Below are positions 3,942 to 64,000 of a DNA stretch of 64,000 nt, piece by piece. The DNA comes from Paludibacteraceae bacterium (GTDB lineage Bacteria; Bacteroidota; Bacteroidia; Bacteroidales; Paludibacteraceae). The translations under genes were made by a program, and so were the position numbers. The stretch covers positions 188,851-252,850 of the forward strand of contig JAFTIM010000004.1 in assembly GCA_017456885.1 (NCBI GenBank). The letters are read 5' to 3'. Below the pieces are notes generated by a model. The model had not been told where the DNA came from, ran no database searches, and saw nothing but the letters and a program-made list of their open reading frames with translations. How positions within the stretch are numbered: position 1 is the first letter of the stretch; the number at the start of each line of letters is the position of its first letter.

Positions 3942-5594
<1,653 letters not shown>

Positions 5595-55532: not shown

Positions 55533-56816
55533 ATGGATGGTTACAGACATAGAATAATGGATAACCTGCTTGAAAAGAAGTTGCAGGCAAAGGGGGCTGT
55601 GCTGATAGAAGGTCCTAAATGGTGTGGAAAGACCACTACAGCAGAGGAGGTTGCAGCCAGCAAAATATTGTTGGCTCGAACTGATGTAAAAAATAGTTTC
55701 AAGAGCCTATTAGAGATAGATACCGATGCTGCACTATCAGGAGATACGCCCATGCTTATTGACGAGTGGCAGACTGTACCTAAATTATGGGATGCAGTGA
55801 GATACACTGTTGATCATCGCCGTAAAATGGGCCAGTTCATCTTAACGGGTTCTGCAGTCCCCGACAAGGAGGCTGAAGAGGAAAGAGAACATTCGGGAAC
55901 AGGACGCTTTGCTTGGTTAACAATGCGACCTATGACCTTGTTTGAATCTGGTGAATCAAACGGAAAGGTGAGTCTTGGCGATTTGTTTACTGCTCCAGAG
56001 AGAATACTGGAAAAGAATGAACTTAAATTGCAAGACATAGCTTTCCTTATTTGTCGTGGTGGTTGGCCTATGGCTGTCGGATTACCCGAAGAGGCGGCAT
56101 TGGAACAAGCGTTTGATTACTATGATGCTGTAACCAAAGAGGATATAACCAAAGTTGATGGAGTTAAAAGAGCTTCGGAGCGAGTGCAACGTTTAATGAG
56201 AGCATATGCTCGACATCAAGGGACACAGGCATCAGTAGCCACCTTAAAGGCGGACTTGAAAAATAATGATACTGCCACTCTTGATGATGACACTATAAGT
56301 TCTTACCTTGAAGCTCTGAGAAAAATATTCGTTGTAGAAGATATGCCGGCTTGGAATCCGAATCTTCGTTCAAAGACCGCAATTCGTACGGCAGATACAC
56401 GCTATTTTGTCGATCCATCTATTGCAACGGCTGCATTAGGTTTAGGTCCTGCCGATTTAATGAATGACTTAAAGACAATGGGCTTTTTCTTTGAAGCAAT
56501 GTGCGTAAGAGATCTGCGCGTGTTTGCAGAAGCATTAAACGGTAAGGTATATCATTATCGGGATAAAAGCGGTTTGGAATGTGATGCAGTTGTACATCTT
56601 CGAAACGGACAGTATGGACTTATTGAAGTCAAACTCGGAGGCGAGACCTTGATAAACGAAGGTATAGAAACACTGACTTCATTAGCCAAGCAGATTGACA
56701 CAACACGCATGAAAGCACCAGCCTTTAAGATGATATTAACGGCAACTGGCGAACATGCCTATCGTCGCCCCGAAGATGGAATTTACATTGTTCCAATAGG
56801 ATGTTTGAAACAGTAA
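55533..56816 (+). CDS. AAA ATPase with C-terminal DUF4143 (PD-(D/E)xK-like) domain (COG1373 type)
   Basis: Walker A GPKWCGKTT (55611-55637), Walker B MLIDEWQ, C-terminal ECDAVV...LIEVK (about 56580-56633). 427 aa. Confidence 0.8.
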   Translation: MDGYRHRIMDNLLEKKLQAKGAVLIEGPKWCGKTTTAEEVAASKILLARTDVKNSFKSLLEIDTDAALSGDTPMLIDEWQTVPKLWDAVRYTVDHRRKMGQFILTGSAVPDKEAEEEREHSGTGRFAWLTMRPMTLFESGESNGKVSLGDLFTAPERILEKNELKLQDIAFLICRGGWPMAVGLPEEAALEQAFDYYDAVTKEDITKVDGVKRASERVQRLMRAYARHQGTQASVATLKADLKNNDTATLDDDTISSYLEALRKIFVVEDMPAWNPNLRSKTAIRTADTRYFVDPSIATAALGLGPADLMNDLKTMGFFFEAMCVRDLRVFAEALNGKVYHYRDKSGLECDAVVHLRNGQYGLIEVKLGGETLINEGIETLTSLAKQIDTTRMKAPAFKMILTATGEHAYRRPEDGIYIVPIGCLKQ

Positions 56817-56842
56817 ATCAGTATTAATTTGAATCCCTTTTA

Positions 56843-56850
56843 TATCTTTG
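56843..56850 (+). promoter_or_regulatory. Bacteroidetes -7 promoter box (TATCTTTG) upstream of the small ORFs and the DUF262-HEPN pair
   Basis: Exact TAnnTTTG, 27 nt after the ATPase stop. Confidence 0.35.
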
Positions 56851-56924
56851 CATTTGAAAAATCATCAAGATTCCAAAGGTGATATGACGAATGAGTATTC
56901 TACGGACGGTACAACTCTTAGGCA

Positions 56925-57101
56925 ATGTATAGAAGCTATGCCCCATCTACCATCAACTTCACAATACTGGAATCGGTTATAGATGCCTGGCAAGATGATT
57001 ATACCGATATGAGGCGATTCTTCATTTATGGTGAATCATTGGAGTTTGAAGCACTCATGTACAGGATAGAGGAACTTCAAAAACGAGTAAAGATGATGTA
57101 G
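56925..57101 (+). CDS. Small hypothetical ORF (58 aa), possibly the distal part of a frameshifted roughly 72-aa gene starting at 56885
   Basis: ATG...MYRSYAPSTINFTILESVIDAWQDDYTDMRRFFIYGESLEFEALMYRIEELQKRVKMM*. An overlapping 32-codon ORF (MTNEYSTDGTTLRQCIEAMPHLPSTSQYWNRL) would join it if the CCCC run were one C longer. Confidence 0.25.
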   Translation: MYRSYAPSTINFTILESVIDAWQDDYTDMRRFFIYGESLEFEALMYRIEELQKRVKMM

Positions 57102-57193
57102 AAATATGTTTATACATTAAATTTATCTGAAACTTTCAATGTAAATTCTTATATAATTGTAAAACTTGGAACATCCATTAAAACTATAAAATA

Positions 57194-58315
57194 ATGATTG
57201 ACGAACGTATAGATTTGATTGAGGAGGAACAGAATGAGGAATTTTCCAATGATGATTTGTTCAATATCACTTCATGGGGAGCTGACCCCTCTGTTCGAGA
57301 GTTAATATTGCAATATAAAGAAGGTGATATAGAAAAACCTGAGTTGCAAAGAAAATATGTATGGACGAAAAAAGATGCAAGCCGATTTATTGAATCCTTG
57401 TTACTTGGACTTCCCGTACCAAGTATATTTCTCGCTAATATCGAGCAGTCTGGGAAACGCCTAATAATCGATGGATACCAAAGAATCCGTACTCTATATG
57501 ATTTTATAGAAGAAGGAATATGGCATGGTGACGATTCGGAATTTAAATTGTTAAATTCTAATATCATAAATGAACGATGGAGAGGTAAAGCTTTCGCAGA
57601 TTTATCAGAGAATGATAAGCGTAGACTTAAAAATTACACGATCCATGCTATTGTTTTTGAGCAAAAACATCCTTCAAATGATTCTGGTCTTTTCCAAGTT
57701 TTTGAAAGGATAAACACAAGCGGTACTACTTTGAATGACCAGGAAATCCGAAATTGTGTTTATCAAGGTGCGATGAATACCCTTTTATTTGCCGTCAATA
57801 AACACGATAAATGGCGTATTTTATACGGAGGTCAAGAAGAAGATTCCAGAATGATGGATTTGGAATTAATATTGCGTTTTTATGCCTTAAACTGCGGGAA
57901 TGTATATAATTCAGATAAAAAGAAAATCAGTCTAAAACAGACGCTAAATAAGTACATGCAAGATAACATGCATGCATCAGATGAATTTATTAATGAAAAG
58001 GAATCTGAATTTTGTTCTGCTATTGATTTTGTATATACAAACTTTGGAGAAGAAGCGTTCTTTAATCTACAAAATGATTTAACTAAAATTAGACGTAGAT
58101 TATATCCAACAGTTTTTGATTCAATTATGATTGCAACTTCTATTGCCCTCAATAGAGGATATGTTTACAATGGAGAGAATCTGAAAGAAAAGCGTATGAA
58201 CTTACTAAAGGACGCTATGTATAGAGACAGTATTTCTCAGGGAACTATGAAAGTAGACAACATTCGTACTCGTATTTCATTGGCTCTACGATTCTTATAC
58301 GGCATGGAACTATGA
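57194..58315 (+). CDS. DUF262 (ParB/Srx-like) domain protein
   Basis: ELQRKYVW...LLLGLPVPSIFL...IIDGYQR (DGQQR-type motif, 57470-57484)...FERINTSGTTL. 373 aa, with a helical C-terminal half and no DUF1524/HNH visible. Confidence 0.85.
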   Translation: MIDERIDLIEEEQNEEFSNDDLFNITSWGADPSVRELILQYKEGDIEKPELQRKYVWTKKDASRFIESLLLGLPVPSIFLANIEQSGKRLIIDGYQRIRTLYDFIEEGIWHGDDSEFKLLNSNIINERWRGKAFADLSENDKRRLKNYTIHAIVFEQKHPSNDSGLFQVFERINTSGTTLNDQEIRNCVYQGAMNTLLFAVNKHDKWRILYGGQEEDSRMMDLELILRFYALNCGNVYNSDKKKISLKQTLNKYMQDNMHASDEFINEKESEFCSAIDFVYTNFGEEAFFNLQNDLTKIRRRLYPTVFDSIMIATSIALNRGYVYNGENLKEKRMNLLKDAMYRDSISQGTMKVDNIRTRISLALRFLYGMEL

Positions 58316-58803
58316 TAAATAATCCAAATGCACAAACTGCTATAGATGACTGTAATGCGGAATTATCTCGTATTACGGGTATAATAAATGGTGTAGGTAG
58401 CACTAGCCCTCTTTCAGGTTACTTGACAAAATATTCTTTAATTAGAATTTGTGGAACCCTTGAGGTCTGTTATAAAACAATTATTGCAGACTATTATGAA
58501 AATCTTGCTCCTCAGTTAGGAAAGTACATTGGCTATCATTTAAGAGATGCGTCAATGAACCCTACATATGATAATATATGCCAAGCAATAAAACGTTTTG
58601 ATGATGTTAGACAGCAAAATTTTAAGTCCGCTGTTGGTGCTCTGACAAATACGGAAAGTTTAAAAGAATCTTTTTCTGTATTAAATAGAGAAAGAAATAA
58701 AGTTGCTCATGGTATAAACTCAACATTATCATTTAATGATATGAAGAGCCGCTTTTCTGAAGCAATAAAAGTTATAGAAGTTTTAGATTCTGTTATGCTC
58801 TAA
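58312..58803 (+). CDS. HEPN-like protein (R-x4-H motif; RiboL-PSP / MAE_18760-like family suspected)
   Basis: 163 aa and predicted to be all-helical. RNKVAHG (R128...H133, 58693-58710) matches the HEPN R-N-x3-H signature. Its ATG overlaps the DUF262 stop as ATGA. Confidence 0.6.
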   Translation: MINNPNAQTAIDDCNAELSRITGIINGVGSTSPLSGYLTKYSLIRICGTLEVCYKTIIADYYENLAPQLGKYIGYHLRDASMNPTYDNICQAIKRFDDVRQQNFKSAVGALTNTESLKESFSVLNRERNKVAHGINSTLSFNDMKSRFSEAIKVIEVLDSVML

Positions 58804-58840
58804 TCCATCTTAATATCTAGACCTAACCATAACATAAGAG

Positions 58841-58862
58841 TAGCCTGCATTCCAGCAGGCTA
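58841..58862. terminator. Bidirectional terminator between convergent HEPN and endonuclease genes
   Basis: TAGCCTGC-ATTCCA-GCAGGCTA hairpin followed by TTATTGTGTTTT. Confidence 0.55.
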
Positions 58863-58908
58863 TTATTGTGTTTTGATGCTTTATTCAATGATTATAAATC
58901 ACTGTTGT

Positions 58909-59637
58909 TTATCTAGCCATTATCGTGTGATAAACCTTATCAATAAACTTTTCATAGTCATTAAGTATCACTGCACCATCAGGAGCAATACTTGGGTATT
59001 GATGTCTGGAAAGTTCCATTGTAGGAATATTATTGCGATAATGCTCTAAATATTCTGTTTTGGTGGTTACTCTATATTCATTAACCTCTGGCATTGTTTG
59101 AACAACATATATCAATGTTTTATTGGGAGTATGATAAAAACAATCCACATCATCAAAAGAAAGGCGGCAATATTTCGTAATATTATGGTCGGTAAATTCC
59201 TCCCACTTGGATAATTCCCCACTATTTTTGTAATATGGGAGTTTGTCCAGAATGATGAAAATCTGGAAATAAGGGCAATTTGCTGTCCTTATATTCGCCG
59301 TTTCTCCTAGCATGTTTTCAAAGTAATTATTTGAATTCTGAGAATAATTCTGCATAACAAACTTAACCGCAATACCAGCAACATCCTTTTGTGTATGCCT
59401 GTTTTTTATGGTAATATCAACCATTTTATCAACATATCGCCCTTTAATACTAGCCTCTCTGTCATCGCCATATCCTTGTGATTTAACAACATAATTCGCA
59501 CCAAGCCTATTAGCAATATCGTGTGCGATTGCTCCATGAAGAGGCTTCAGTTTTGCTGTACTTCGTGAAGTACCTATTGATACAAAAGACTTAAAAGAGT
59601 CTAGAATCTTCTCCAAAAAAACTTGATTGGTCAACAT
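58909..59637 (-). CDS. Putative type II restriction endonuclease (assigned by context)
   Basis: 242 aa, same strand as the methyltransferase, and its first 47 nt overlap that gene's 3' end. It has a PD-(D/E)xK-like segment VDITIKN-x10-IAVKFV (D74...K92), but the acidic residue of the ExK triad is not obvious. Confidence 0.45.
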   Translation of the reverse strand: MLTNQVFLEKILDSFKSFVSIGTSRSTAKLKPLHGAIAHDIANRLGANYVVKSQGYGDDREASIKGRYVDKMVDITIKNRHTQKDVAGIAVKFVMQNYSQNSNNYFENMLGETANIRTANCPYFQIFIILDKLPYYKNSGELSKWEEFTDHNITKYCRLSFDDVDCFYHTPNKTLIYVVQTMPEVNEYRVTTKTEYLEHYRNNIPTMELSRHQYPSIAPDGAVILNDYEKFIDKVYHTIMAR

Positions 59638-61072
59638 ATTGTTTTTCTGATTTATATGTAATGTAATAATTTATATACTGCTGCACATCTTTTGAGTTAA
59701 ATGTATAGTATCCACCACTTTTGTATTTTTTGAGTAAACTTACATACTTTGCAAATTCTTCACTAATGAGAATACTTTTAATATCTTCAAAAGGGATATT
59801 CAGTTCACTGATTATGTATAATCCGCTATACAATCCACATCCAGCTTTTACAAACTCAATTTTCAGATCTTTTTCTGTGCGAAGTAAAGTGTTAATTGCA
59901 ACTTTATCTTTCCACACATCTGCTAACGCCTGTGTCCTACCGAACTCATAGAATGTTGGATATTCGGTTCTACCTTTTAAAAGAGCGCTTTTATGTTTGT
60001 TAAAATACTCGCAAATAGTATCATCTGAAAGAACTGTATTAGGTGATAATAATTTCCCTCTCTTGTCGTATGGGAATAAACAGTTATACCATTTACCAGT
60101 TGATGCTTTCAACGTCTTGATTGTAATATTAGATTCTGGGATTCCATCTCCGATAAAAACATTGTCAGCCAATGTAGCGAAACCATTCTTGACAGAAACA
60201 TAAGTAGGACATTTTTTGGTCTTAATGTCTCGTAATACATTGAGGCTTTCTTTGTCGGACAGATAGAAATATGAGTCTATAAAACAATCATCCAATTGTA
60301 TGCGGTCGCAGAATTTACGACAACGTTTTATGCTGTCAAAGGTATAGTAGTCAAAATGTTTATCTTTTTTATCCTTCGCAAATAAAGAGATAATAGTATA
60401 TGCCGTTGCATTTTCAAATGGCTGAAAGTGTCCTAAATCTACTAGGGAAACTAAATTTTGTTCTCTAAGAATATACAATCTCATATTATGAGCTGCAACA
60501 CTATTGAGCCATGAACTAGGAGTAATATAACATAATTTGCCAGTTGCATTTAACATTCTAAATCCTAATTCAAAAAATGCTAAATATAAATCTGTCATTC
60601 CACCATTGGCGAATTTGTATTGCTTAACTTCATCATATGAGGAATCTAAATTATGTACACGTACATATGGGGGATTACCAACAACAAAGTCCATTTTCCT
60701 GTCAAATTTTGTAATTGATAGCGAACTTTGATTATATAAATCCCATTTAATATTATCAAGCCCAAATCCTTGTGCGATTTGATTAAGATTTACAATACAT
60801 TGCTGATAAGCAATTTCATCGGTGTCTATTCCATGTATAAATTTTTCAAGATCTTGTTTTATGATACCACTATCTCTGCCTGCTTTCAATGATTCATTAC
60901 AATACCTTGCTACCACCGATTTTAAGAAAGCACCATCACCACAGCTATTATCAATGATATGCTTACCAATTATAGAGGATCCAACATATCCTGCATAATT
61001 CAGCATTTCATCAACAAGATATTGTGGCGTAAATACTTGTCCTATCTTTTTCGTCTTTTTATTTTCTTTCAT
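59591..61072 (-). CDS. Gamma-class N6-adenine DNA methyltransferase (Eco57I/TaqI-like) with a C-terminal target-recognition domain
   Basis: QVFTPQYLVDEM (motif X), DNSCGDGAFL (motif I), NPPY (motif IV, 60665-60676). 493 aa. Confidence 0.9.
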   Translation of the reverse strand: MKENKKTKKIGQVFTPQYLVDEMLNYAGYVGSSIIGKHIIDNSCGDGAFLKSVVARYCNESLKAGRDSGIIKQDLEKFIHGIDTDEIAYQQCIVNLNQIAQGFGLDNIKWDLYNQSSLSITKFDRKMDFVVGNPPYVRVHNLDSSYDEVKQYKFANGGMTDLYLAFFELGFRMLNATGKLCYITPSSWLNSVAAHNMRLYILREQNLVSLVDLGHFQPFENATAYTIISLFAKDKKDKHFDYYTFDSIKRCRKFCDRIQLDDCFIDSYFYLSDKESLNVLRDIKTKKCPTYVSVKNGFATLADNVFIGDGIPESNITIKTLKASTGKWYNCLFPYDKRGKLLSPNTVLSDDTICEYFNKHKSALLKGRTEYPTFYEFGRTQALADVWKDKVAINTLLRTEKDLKIEFVKAGCGLYSGLYIISELNIPFEDIKSILISEEFAKYVSLLKKYKSGGYYTFNSKDVQQYINYYITYKSEKQYVDQSSFFGEDSRLF

Positions 61073-61089
61073 TCCGTCATTGTTTATCT

Positions 61090-61108
61090 TCTCTATGTAA
61101 GAGATACT
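61090..61108. repeat. Left arm of a perfect 19-bp inverted repeat (TCTCTATGTAAGAGATACT)
   Basis: Exact reverse complement of 61263-61281, checked base by base. Confidence 0.95.
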
Positions 61109-61244
61109 GCTATTGATGGAACTTGCTGATTATTAGACGGAATTTTGTTTTATGTATCTGCTTTTGCTAAACAGCCACACACAATTATATGGCTCACAGC
61201 CTTTTTATTGGCTCTAAAAATGGTGATAGTTGCTTTATTTTGCG

Positions 61245-61252
61245 TAATTTTG
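61245..61252 (+). promoter_or_regulatory. Bacteroidetes -7 promoter box (TAATTTTG) inside the IR-flanked segment
   Basis: This is the only TAnnTTTG match on either strand of 61109-61262. After inversion it would lie about 47 nt upstream of the methyltransferase ATG. Confidence 0.4.
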
Positions 61253-61262
61253 CAGTAAATTA

Positions 61263-61281
61263 AGTATCTCTTACATAGAGA
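61263..61281. repeat. Right arm of a perfect 19-bp inverted repeat (AGTATCTCTTACATAGAGA)
   Basis: Exact reverse complement of 61090-61108. Confidence 0.95.
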
Positions 61282-61310
61282 GCAATCATTTTGCTAAATA
61301 TCTTTACTTC

Positions 61311-62507
61311 TTACAAATCCTTTAATATCTGTGCATTTGCTCTATCAACTACGGCATTATCCAATGATGCCAAATAGATTTGTGTAGTCATCTCCGAGTC
61401 GTGTCCCATACCTTCACTGATAACAGATATTGGGATATTCTTACTCTTAGCAATGCTCGCCCACGAATGACGGGCTACATATAGGGTTAGAGGAATGGAT
61501 AATCCGACCATATTCGCAATCTCTTTTAGCGACTTGTTAGTGCGATATAGCACATTCTTATATTGGTTTCTATCGTATGGATATTTGAGAATGGGTAACA
61601 AATATGGGCTGTAGTAATCAGCATCGTGTTTATCCACAATCTCCTGCATACACCTCTCCCATTTAATGAATAATTGTTGCCCTGTTTTGCGTCTGCGGTA
61701 TGATAGTATGCCATTAGAGAGGTCTTTTTTCTTGAGGTATGCCATATCAATAAAAGACATTCCTCGTGTGTAGAATGAGAACATAAACATATCTCGAGCA
61801 AAGTCCAACGATGGTTGCAATGACAGGTCGAGATTCTTAATCCGCTTGATTGCCTTTAATGGAATGGCTCGCTTAATGGTCTTATCAATACCCGTATAAA
61901 CGTGTTTGAATGGGGTTCGATTGGTGGTCAAATCCTTTTCAACTGCACGGTTATAAACCGCTCGGAGTATTCGCATATAGAACGAAGAACTGTTTTTTGT
62001 TAGTCCTCTATTATGCAAATAAGCCTCATACATCAGCATTAAATCGGAGTCAATATCTTCCAATAAAATATCCTTATCATCTCTAAACTCCATAAAACTT
62101 TTAAGCGTGCAACGATAGGTCTCCGATGTGCGTTGCTTACCCATCTGCTGCAATTGGGCTATAACACCCTGCATAAAGTTGAACAACGATTGCTCATTGA
62201 CTTGCTTCTAGAATGTGGAGATTATATCATCAGCGCTGTACTTTATTCGCTTTTTCTCTAATTGGTTAATGACAGATTGTAGTCGCTTAATATCCCAATC
62301 AATATGCTCCTCGATGGATTGCAGATAGTTCTGTCGGCTGTTATTGGTGGCGATTATAGCATTGTTATCTTCATTCCATTCGTGCATAAAGAGTCGGTAA
62401 TCCGTCTTTAACTGACGGATTACACGATTCTGAATTACCTGATAATAGATTGTTCCCTCTTTGTCCTCATTTGTCGAGGGTCGAAACCTTACCTTGATAC
62501 TTGCCAT
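61311..62507 (-). pseudogene. Tyrosine site-specific recombinase (Bacteroides integrase type) interrupted by an in-frame TAG
   Basis: N-terminal 99 aa (MASIKVRFRPS..., arm-binding type) and C-terminal 291 aa (YTRGMS, ARHSWAS, GHDSEMTTQIY catalytic R/H-x-x-R/Y) are in the same frame. They are separated by a TAG at 62208-62210. Confidence 0.85.
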
Positions 62508-63022
62508 ATTACTATATTATTTTTTGTTTTGATAATCCTTCTATATTTTTCTATTTTCCCCTATAGTATTCTACATTTAGTTTATACCTATTCTGCAAAA
62601 AAAGACCTATATAAATAAATGCCCTTATATTCACTCATTTGCTCATTTTTTTGGTTGTCTAAACTCAGAAAGCCCTCTATTCTATATTAGCATTCCACAA
62701 AAACAAGGATTAAGACACTATTGCATCGGCAACTCACATTGTATTCATGCCATCAAGGGATGTCGTTTCGCAAGTAACCGCTCTACAAAAAAAACAGCAA
62801 TAAAAAAAATAGCAAGTTTTATTTTAAATACGAAGTAATTTATTTTAATTGCTATTTAAATACAAAATACTTAAAAATATTTTAATTAAAAACAAAAGCA
62901 TTTTTTAATACTTCAAGAACCGATTATCTAAAACAAGCAAAATCGCAATTTCCATACTTTGCATACCTAAAAAACAAGTCGGCTTTTCGGCTTTAACATA
63001 GACATTTTTTAGAATAGCATAT

Positions 63023-63799
63023 ATGGAAACAAACAACTTAGGATTGTACGAAGCAGCCAACGAACACGACGCTTGCGGTGTGGGTATGGTTGTCAATATT
63101 CACGGTAACAAGTCACACGAGTTAGTAGATTCGGCTTTAAAAGTATTGGAAAACATGCGTCATCGCGGAGCGGAAGGTGCCGACGAGGTATTCGGAGGTT
63201 ATCTCTATTTTCACAAAGCTCCCGATGCAAAGGCTTTCCACGAAGAGACGGTACGAAAACTATCGAAGCTGTACCTTTACGACTGCCTGCGCGCTAATAA
63301 AAGCCTTTCGGCCTGAGGCGTAGAGGGTCGCGTGCCATTTCTCGACAAGGAATTTCTCGACGTGGCAATGCGTCTTGCCCCCGAGTCGAAAATGTGTTCG
63401 GGCAATACCATCGAGAAAAAAATCGTGCGCGAAGCCTTTGCCGATATGCTTCCCTACAATGTGGCTTGGCGACAAAAAGAGCAGTTCAGCGATGGCGTAG
63501 GTTACAATTGGATTGACACGTTGAGAGCCATCACTGCCGAAGCCGTCAGCGATGAACAAATGGCGCATGCTGCCGAACGCTTCCCCATCAATACGCCGAT
63601 GAACAAGGAGAAATACTACCATCGTTCGATATTCGAGGAGCATTTCCCGAGCAAAAGTGCGGCTTTGAGTGTTCCACACGAAGCCAGCGTAGCATGCTCC
63701 ACTGCCATTGCTCTTGAATGGGACAAAGCATGGAAAGGGAAAAACGAGCCAAGCGGTCGTGCCGTAAAAGATGTTCACGAAAAAGCATACGAAAAATAG
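63023..63799 (+). pseudogene. gltB'-'asnB fusion remnant (5' end of glutamate synthase large subunit joined in frame to the 3' third of asparagine synthase B) with an internal TGA
   Basis: Residues 1-54 ([14 protein letters not shown]...[10 protein letters not shown]) are GltB-like. From about 63185 the sequence [26 protein letters not shown]...RVPFLDKEFLDVAM...AWRQKEQFSDGVGY is AsnB-like. TGA at 63314-63316 replaces the Trp of the SAWGVE motif. Confidence 0.8.
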
Positions 63800-63824
63800 A
63801 CATTCTAAACAATTACTACAGATT

Positions 63825-64000
63825 ATGAAAAAACGCTGGATAATACTAATGACTGCTATGGTCATAATTGCCATTGCAGGACTATTCGCAACGGAACCGA
63901 CTTTCGATTGCGACTTTTCGAAAATAAATGCAGCAGACGTTGCATGGCTGATTACCGCCACGATATTTGTACTGATGATGACACCGGGGTTGTCGTTTTT
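63825..64000 (+). CDS. amt: Ammonium transporter (Amt family), 5' partial
   Basis: MKKRWIILMTAMVIIAIAG...ADVAWLITATIFVLMMTPGLSF matches the Amt N-terminal TM1 / TPGL(A/S)FF region. It runs off the window. Confidence 0.7.
   Translation, partial: MKKRWIILMTAMVIIAIAGLFATEPTFDCDFSKINAADVAWLITATIFVLMMTPGLSF

Follow-up and report, generated by a model that had tools for sequence, protein, structure and literature searches.

We analysed a 64-kb stretch of DNA from a Paludibacteraceae bacterium (64,000 nt of contig JAFTIM010000004.1, hereafter the window) in which two perfect 19-bp inverted repeats lie upstream of a restriction-modification (R-M) operon. These repeats are very likely to be the core sites of a tyrosine-recombinase inversion switch that gates the operon, with the cognate invertase encoded next to them. 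Among near-identical loci from other samples the segment between the repeats is found in both orientations, and in the window it is in the orientation that we call OFF. The window proteins carry the NCBI label of a Paludibacteraceae bacterium metagenome-assembled genome (MAG), and the sample names point to ruminant-gut metagenomes. The elements of the putative switch, in the gap between the methyltransferase (MTase) and recombinase genes, are listed below.

61090-61108, no strand: putative proximal (MTase-side) recombination core site, TCTCTATGTAAGAGATACT, a perfect inverted-repeat arm and the inversion breakpoint in loci L004 and L018.
61109-61262, no strand: invertible segment of 154 nt, in the orientation called OFF.
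61245-61252, + strand: Bacteroidetes-type -7 promoter box TAATTTTG, the sole TAnnTTTG of the intergenic region, pointing to the 3' end of the recombinase gene.
61263-61281, no strand: putative distal (integrase-side) recombination core site, AGTATCTCTTACATAGAGA, the exact reverse complement of the proximal arm.

A repeat search of the window recovered the two arms as the initial annotation had described them, each 19 nt long, 100% complementary and 154 nt apart. The open reading frame (ORF) coordinates likewise agree with its account of the spacing: 238 nt separate the MTase ATG (61072) from the end of the recombinase ORF (61311), and the proximal arm lies 17 nt from the ATG. Both arms and the entire segment are intergenic, between 61072 and 61311, so the layout is not that of an hsdS-type coding inversion. 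Allowing up to three mismatches, the 19-mer occurs at just these two places in the window, where 0.02 occurrences are expected, and none of 100 shuffled sequences contained two or more. The proximal core site is also a dyad in itself (TCTCT-ATGTA-AGAGA). The 17-nt MTase leader (61073-61089, minus strand) holds a three-codon mini-ORF, ATG ACG GAA TGA, whose stop overlaps the MTase ATG; this may be trivial.

On either strand of 61073-61310 the only match to TAnnTTTG is the box listed above, against a window background of 0.59 matches per kb per strand. Its place on the + strand, facing away from the minus-strand M-R genes, and its position after inversion (61126-61119, minus strand, mirrored through the repeat centre) are those given in the initial annotation; the distance from the flipped box to the MTase ATG is 46 nt rather than the 47 nt stated there. 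In the OFF orientation the promoter would fire antisense into the 3' end of the integrase gene, and the R-M operon would have no promoter of its own. Recombination between the inverted core sites, presumably catalysed by the adjacent integrase-type recombinase, would flip the segment, bring the -7 box into position upstream of the MTase and turn the operon ON. Such inversion would make both methylation and restriction phase-variable.

The strongest evidence for inversion comes from contigs in ENA and Logan that encode the identical methyltransferase, the identical 242-aa protein that follows it in the operon, or close variants of either; orientations counted from these consensus assemblies represent only the majority state per sample. 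An exact-pattern scan of Joint Genome Institute (JGI) metagenome contigs for the proximal repeat with its MTase flank found nothing, so the orientation census rests on the ENA and Logan contigs retrieved by protein. The window orientation (OFF) is present in about 19 other samples. In L004 (ERZ1767601 NODE_8) and L018 (ERZ27227510 k141_284491) the segment is reversed between flanks that keep the order of the window: the 192-bp stretch spanning both repeats aligns in reverse, with 96.9% identity in L004 and 98.4% in L018, and the breakpoints fall exactly at the repeats. What had been proposed as a candidate inverton, currently OFF, is thus found inverted precisely at its repeats in near-identical loci of other samples. 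Also, L018 (ON) and L019 (OFF, from another sample) encode an identical MTase protein and share a diagnostic single-nucleotide polymorphism (SNP) within the segment, indicating that one allele occurs in both orientations. Because the 19-nt repeat is shorter than assembly k-mers, we infer that an assembly would show the segment inverted only where reads supported this.

Signs of both orientations within one sample were sought in contig ends. The Logan contig L016 (SRR12711444) starts exactly 30 nt (k-1; 11 inner nt plus the 19-nt repeat) away from the outer flank. A k = 31 graph would branch there if both orientations were present, so this start is suggestive. Other Logan contigs that end inside the segment (L008-L010 and L017) were considered as inversion marks and rejected, as their ends do not fit the position of a k = 31 inversion branch. 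The ends of L009 and L017 are matched exactly by a strain-SNP bubble with an L004-type allele; those of L008 and L010 need a further variant, which was not seen.

The same arrangement recurs across Bacteroidales. A search with an alignment of four integrases (A2) against GTDB representative genomes returned at least 574 relatives, of which the best 80 loci were fetched. A perfect inverted repeat of 11-29 nt lies behind the integrase in 58 of the 80, and several of the other 22 end too close to the integrase stop for the repeat to be assessed. The geometry of the 58 modules is narrow: in nearly all, the repeat starts 23-61 nt past the integrase stop and the spacer measures 134-183 nt, and in most no more than about 60 nt separate the module from the next ORF on that strand. 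In 53 of them TAnnTTTG is present on a single strand among the final 45 nt of the segment, roughly 10-20 nt from the segment end, against the window background of 0.59 matches per kb per strand; it faces the downstream (cargo) gene in 11 loci and the integrase in 42. Between an isolate of Leyella lascolaii (L102, ON) and a Prevotella MAG (L103, OFF), segment and flanks are each 100% identical and the segment alone is inverted, and the segments of L065 and L068 are 94% identical when inverted. Thus, the likeness to Bacteroides invertible promoters beside site-specific recombinases that the initial annotation had drawn is supported by an integrase-repeat-promoter-repeat-cargo order at 58 loci and in both orientations; conserved inverted repeats at homologous loci, which it had named as a check, were found at these same 58.

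Two sets of relatives were compared with the window in more detail. The cultured human-gut strain Bacteroides xylanisolvens XB1A (L031 4730-4920, NC_021017.1) has the identical 19-nt repeat and inverton, OFF, with an integrase that is 91% identical and another cargo (MSQIKSKE..., a 220-aa MmeI_Mtase-like family, partly masked by N). In the cassettes that we term family B (L020-L029), the methyltransferase and 242-aa region has 86% DNA identity and the integrase 49% protein identity to those of the window; the layout is the same, with a different repeat (AATCTCTTTCTATGAGA), a 193-nt segment and a sole box facing away from the cargo. The repeat therefore co-varies with the recombinase. Family B also has a second perfect inverted repeat of 12 nt (TTGTCGGAGATA/TATCTCCGACAA) with a 53-nt spacer between the integrase stop and the inverton (L020 2013-2089, likewise in L021-L029), which is absent from the window.

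Alignment of the segments of related loci, oriented by promoter (alignment A5), resolved the anatomy of the core sites. A family consensus, aTCTCTTnnnAAGAGA, itself a dyad, is present at both segment ends. Its half-sites (TCTCT/AGAGA) are conserved, and its central bases vary between loci while being identical in the two arms of each locus. Conserved half-sites around a variable, arm-matched centre are the crossover pattern of tyrosine recombinases, as in Cre-, Flp- and Xer-type sites. Some genomes contain two or more paralogous platforms (L051/L087, L069/L101, L067/L103), and locus-specific centres would prevent reactions between such paralogues. No other feature of the segment is as well conserved as the -7 box, TAnnTTTG(CA), which stands about 12 nt away from one core site in columns that are invariant or nearly so. 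The middle of the segment holds a further near-invariant block, TTTGCTAAACAA, at the inner copy of a 9-mer that occurs twice in the window and was not noted in the initial annotation.

61164-61172, + strand: inner copy of the 9-mer, TTGCTAAAC, which flips with the segment; candidate accessory or arm-type site.
61291-61299, + strand: outer copy, TTGCTAAAT, fixed, 9 nt outside the distal core site and in direct repeat with the inner copy.

Both copies recur across the family. The inner 9-mer is found with at most one mismatch in 41 of the 58 loci, on a strand that follows the orientation of the segment, and in 37 of the 58 an outer 9-mer is found beyond the distal repeat, at a distance of 4-14 nt (mostly about 9 nt). 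Since the recombinase has an arm-binding domain, the two copies are candidate arm-type or accessory sites. As the copies are direct repeats in OFF and inverted repeats in ON, they could bias the direction of inversion.

The recombinase gene next to the segment is interrupted by a nonsense codon.

61311-62507, minus strand: tyrosine recombinase/integrase gene, nonsense-interrupted, with Pfam Arm-DNA-bind_5, Phage_int_SAM_5 and Phage_integrase on two ORF pieces.
62208-62210, minus strand: in-frame TAG at codon 100 (CAG/Gln in intact alleles), dividing the arm-binding domain from the core-binding and catalytic domains.

The adjoining tyrosine recombinase of the initial annotation is confirmed as to family: the predicted protein has the SAM-like core-binding domain of tyrosine recombinases/phage integrases (Pfam), and R248, K274, R347, H370 and Y379 are invariant in alignment A2, with Tyr344 replacing the first His (by inspection). 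The gene is not intact here, which the annotation does not mention. Reading through the frame 62507-61314 crosses the TAG, which leaves a 99-aa arm-binding ORF and a core-binding/catalytic ORF of 287-291 aa. The same split is present in L001 (ERZ27256821), and the allele is intact in the sister strains L002-L007, of which L002 and L005 are OFF. The intact L005 allele is identical to that of the window at 396 of 398 positions, so the mutation is recent. Because the TAG separates the arm-binding from the catalytic part, we consider it probable that the switch in this genome is locked in OFF or strongly impaired. The prediction that the R-M system is phase-variable agrees with the natural inversion among sister genomes, but may no longer apply to this strain.

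Alternatively, the inverton may still be switching in this genome, either because the 287-291 aa that follow the TAG are still made as an active protein or because a paralogous integrase elsewhere in the chromosome acts in trans. This is possible, if clearly less probable than loss or impairment of switching. All catalytic residues lie within the downstream fragment, many simple tyrosine invertases (FimB/E, Cre, XerC/D) work without an arm-binding domain, and some genomes, as noted above, have two or more platforms. Against this, the arm-binding domain is present family-wide and the candidate arm sites are conserved, which suggests that the domain is needed; central spacers differ between paralogous platforms, making cross-reaction less likely; the 64-kb window contains no paralogue; and L001, the other assembly with the TAG allele, is also OFF.

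Several further observations weigh against a functional switch of the kind proposed here. There is no clear -33 TTTG at canonical spacing from the -7 box, and in the ON-oriented L018 allele the box is mutated to TAATTTCG. No intrinsic terminator was detected between the co-directional integrase and R-M operon (60800-62700), so read-through could give some expression in the OFF state. The start of the L016 contig is the only hint of heterogeneity within a population, the assemblies being consensus sequences, and the assignment of the 242-aa ORF as an endonuclease (see below) is weakly supported by its structural model. A scan for sigma-70 promoters and terminators gave nothing above shuffled sequences and is uninformative for Bacteroidetes. 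The L018 change (segment 2311-2464) is one of two possibly inactivating changes in ON loci, the other being a stop at codon 7 of the cargo gene in L052 (~4919-4945; TAA vs CAA in L041). These changes could reflect selection against constitutive expression, or chance.

The lack of a detected terminator also bears on whether the segment inverts without gating the R-M operon. In that case, read-through from the integrase promoter would supply the operon in both orientations, and the flipping promoter would mainly control the recombinase by antisense transcription. The co-directional arrangement of integrase and cargo favours such a model, as does the direction of the promoter, which faces the integrase in the majority of the reference loci with a box. 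We nevertheless regard it as improbable. The restriction genes of the Bacteroides thetaiotaomicron analogue rise 6- to 16-fold in phage-exposed cultures, and inversion of the promoter from off to on was shown at that locus (bioRxiv 10.1101/521070). Also, the spacing between the flipped box and the cargo-proximal core site is short and fixed, and in most loci the ATG of the cargo lies within about 15-60 nt past that core, which is the geometry of a cargo promoter.

A third possibility is that the repeats serve a mobile element for attachment or cassette exchange and do not switch expression. The unit of integrase, inverton, methyltransferase and 242-aa gene (58858-62523) is indeed found in differing genomic contexts, with homology between genomes limited by a hairpin at the end of the operon and by a point about 16 nt upstream of the integrase ATG, and the same integrase and repeat precede different cargo. 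Nucleotide identity also changes sharply across the inverton. When the window (55591-64000) is compared with L004, the MTase side is 99.95% identical, the segment 96.9% and the integrase side 93.9%; L018 is 84.7% identical to the window in the integrase and 99.4% in the M-R region. This jump suggests recombination at or near the platform. However, no core-like (att-like) sites were found at the cassette boundaries, and an inverted arrangement of the two sites, with 154 nt between them, points to inversion rather than excision. Both orientations occur between identical flanks, the promoter box is conserved, and the leader past the core site does not track the cargo. Thus, an exchange-site role without a switch is very unlikely. 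A megablast search of plasmids with the cassette gave no match.

Least credible, to the point of being negligible, is that the repeat arose by chance or belongs to a miniature inverted-repeat transposable element (MITE), a structured RNA or a terminator. Repeats do arise readily in AT-rich intergenic DNA, but the pair is unique in the window far beyond expectation, a 154-nt loop is no terminator, there is no Rfam match in 60800-61600, and, in place of the many dispersed, recombinase-independent copies of a MITE, all 58 related modules lie directly downstream (3') of an integrase gene (the integrase was the bait with which loci were collected, and copies lacking it were not searched for).

The operon downstream of the inversion switch comprises two overlapping genes.

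59591-61072, minus strand: Type II N6-adenine DNA methyltransferase, 493 aa, the first cargo gene, with Pfam Eco57I and N6_Mtase and a full-length PADLOC MTase_II match (E = 4e-160).
58909-59637, minus strand: 242-aa ORF, overlapping the 3' end of the MTase gene by 47 nt, with weak fold matches to restriction-endonuclease-fold nucleases.
58842-58861, minus strand: hairpin AGCCTGC-TGGAAT-GCAGGCT at the end of the M-R operon, where cassette homology between genomes stops; putative terminator.

The first of these is a stand-alone DNA methyltransferase, as expected of a Type II system, by both Pfam and PADLOC. The 242-aa ORF has more than 2,500 homologues and stands behind an MTase homologue in every retrieved locus, and it has no match in Pfam, NCBIfam, PADLOC or PDB sequences. 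Its AlphaFold2 (AF2) model has a predicted local distance difference test score (pLDDT) of 90. Foldseek matches of this model to the PDB are weak (best E = 2e-3, TM 0.3-0.45), and the top 20 are mostly restriction-endonuclease-fold nucleases, including BstEII, BspD6I, BsaWI, PspGI, AgeI and NotI. The protein is probably, though not certainly, the cognate PD-(D/E)xK restriction endonuclease. The 90%-identity protein cluster of the 242-aa ORF also lists methyltransferase homologues of 493 and 499 aa (P0011 and P0012), probably a clustering artefact from the overlapping genes or a fused gene call. We speculate that the order of the genes, M before R with an overlap, may help a cell to survive when the endonuclease is turned ON over an unmethylated chromosome.

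The cassette is flanked by other genes of possible interest. The R-M cassette is part of a defence island: downstream of the operon, at 55533-58803 (+ strand), GmrSD_N and HEPN_RiboL-PSP genes match PADLOC PD-T4-2 A/B and NsnA, and PDC-S01 is matched by an AAA_14-DUF4143 gene. The HEPN and GmrSD genes beside this cassette in L018 are different and non-homologous. Just past the integrase, at 63023-63799 (+ strand), two short adjoining ORFs of 97 and about 143-155 aa encode GATase_2 and Asn_synthase domains (Pfam on the L001 genes). They look like a fragmented asparagine-synthase pseudogene, which may be the mark of an old insertion site.

We surveyed the first ORFs downstream of 48 of the related modules. 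This cargo mostly has defence functions. Pfam assignments include N6_Mtase (7), ResIII/Helicase_C (9), Type ISP enzymes (6) and SNF2 (4), as well as MmeI, Type III and HsdM methylases, and PADLOC calls include MTase_II, REase_MTase_IIG, DrmD and HKD+Snf2. Different cargo genes follow the same integrase and an identical repeat, starting 13-17 nt past the core site. Exchange of cargo by site-specific recombination at the core site was considered and is unsupported, since the leader past the core and the type of cargo do not co-segregate.

These analyses suggest that phase variation affects a large part of the defence repertoire in gut Bacteroidales, with the same module placed before many defence systems across families. 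We tentatively propose that a platform for phase-variable defence expression is widespread in Bacteroidales and has spread horizontally, the window containing one copy of it. Such a platform would consist of an arm-binding integrase of about 400 aa, an inverton of about 150 bp and interchangeable anti-phage cargo (components of Type II, IIG/ISP, III and I R-M systems, DISARM-like helicases and HKD-SNF2 proteins). Each copy would remain orthogonal to the others through its own core-site spacer, and the TTGCTAAAC arm-type sites, bound by the N-terminal domain, would sense or bias orientation, which would make the mechanism closer to that of lambda-Int than to Fim- or Cre-type inversion; this remains a possible rather than a favoured interpretation. 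The succession of integrase stop, TTGCTAAAC, TCTCTTnnnAAGAGA, about 150 nt, -7 box and core site can serve as a signature to find such loci and, with them, new defence cargo.

If the switch works as we infer, the whole Type II R-M system would be expressed in a subpopulation only, affecting the methylome, phage resistance and the uptake of foreign DNA. This would amount to bet-hedging against phage as well as against the cost of self-restriction, and it would mostly be the silent state that metagenome assemblies capture. The nonsense mutation in the recombinase would then exemplify the freezing of such a switch in a lineage.

Previous studies have described individual elements of this arrangement. 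A 2026 report found homologues of a Bacteroides tyrosine recombinase near restriction enzymes (PMC13552941), and an inverton survey lists invertons adjacent to R-M systems of Types I-III (PMC11741434). The searchable literature contains single loci and a general association of recombinases with defence; a family-wide platform with interchangeable defence cargo, locus-specific core spacers and paired TTGCTAAAC sites was not found there.

The closest precedent for the window switch is BT4014-13 of B. thetaiotaomicron (Porter et al., bioRxiv 10.1101/521070), which has an upstream recombinase, 18-bp inverted repeats, a promoter close to the consensus whose assembled orientation is OFF and restriction-enzyme cargo. 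PCR and amplicon sequencing verified that it inverts, and its expression is selected for by exposure to phage (bioRxiv 10.1101/521070). The two loci share the upstream recombinase, repeats of similar length (about 18 bp; 19 here) and a promoter directed away from the restriction genes. The likeness is one of layout, and the locus described here differs in its host (Paludibacteraceae of the ruminant gut), its genes (a Type II N6A methyltransferase and a 242-aa putative endonuclease) and its nonsense-mutated recombinase.

The S-layer/OmpA loci of B. thetaiotaomicron (BT1927 and seven paralogues; bioRxiv 10.1101/521070) likewise combine an adjacent tyrosine recombinase with imperfect 17-nt palindromic repeats around a promoter, ON/OFF control and several paralogous platforms per genome. 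Their cargo, in contrast, is surface lipoproteins, and their promoter region is reported to be 301 bp long and near-identical between paralogues, whereas here each platform has its own core-site spacer. The Type I hsdS shufflon of Bacteroides fragilis (PMC7641763) and epigenetic invertons (PMC7672463) also make R-M systems and the methylome phase-variable in gut Bacteroidales by site-specific inversion. Those systems invert coding half-genes and so change specificity, whereas the segment described here is an intergenic promoter that would turn a whole Type II system ON or OFF.

In Escherichia coli, fimS is a 314-bp promoter segment between 9-bp repeats, inverted by the small recombinases FimB and FimE, which lack an arm-binding domain, with accessory sites that bias direction. 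It resembles the window switch in having a short invertible promoter segment, short inverted repeats and adjacent tyrosine recombinases. The recombinase family described here differs in being of integrase type, with about 400 aa, an N-terminal Arm-DNA-bind_5 domain and candidate arm-type sites.

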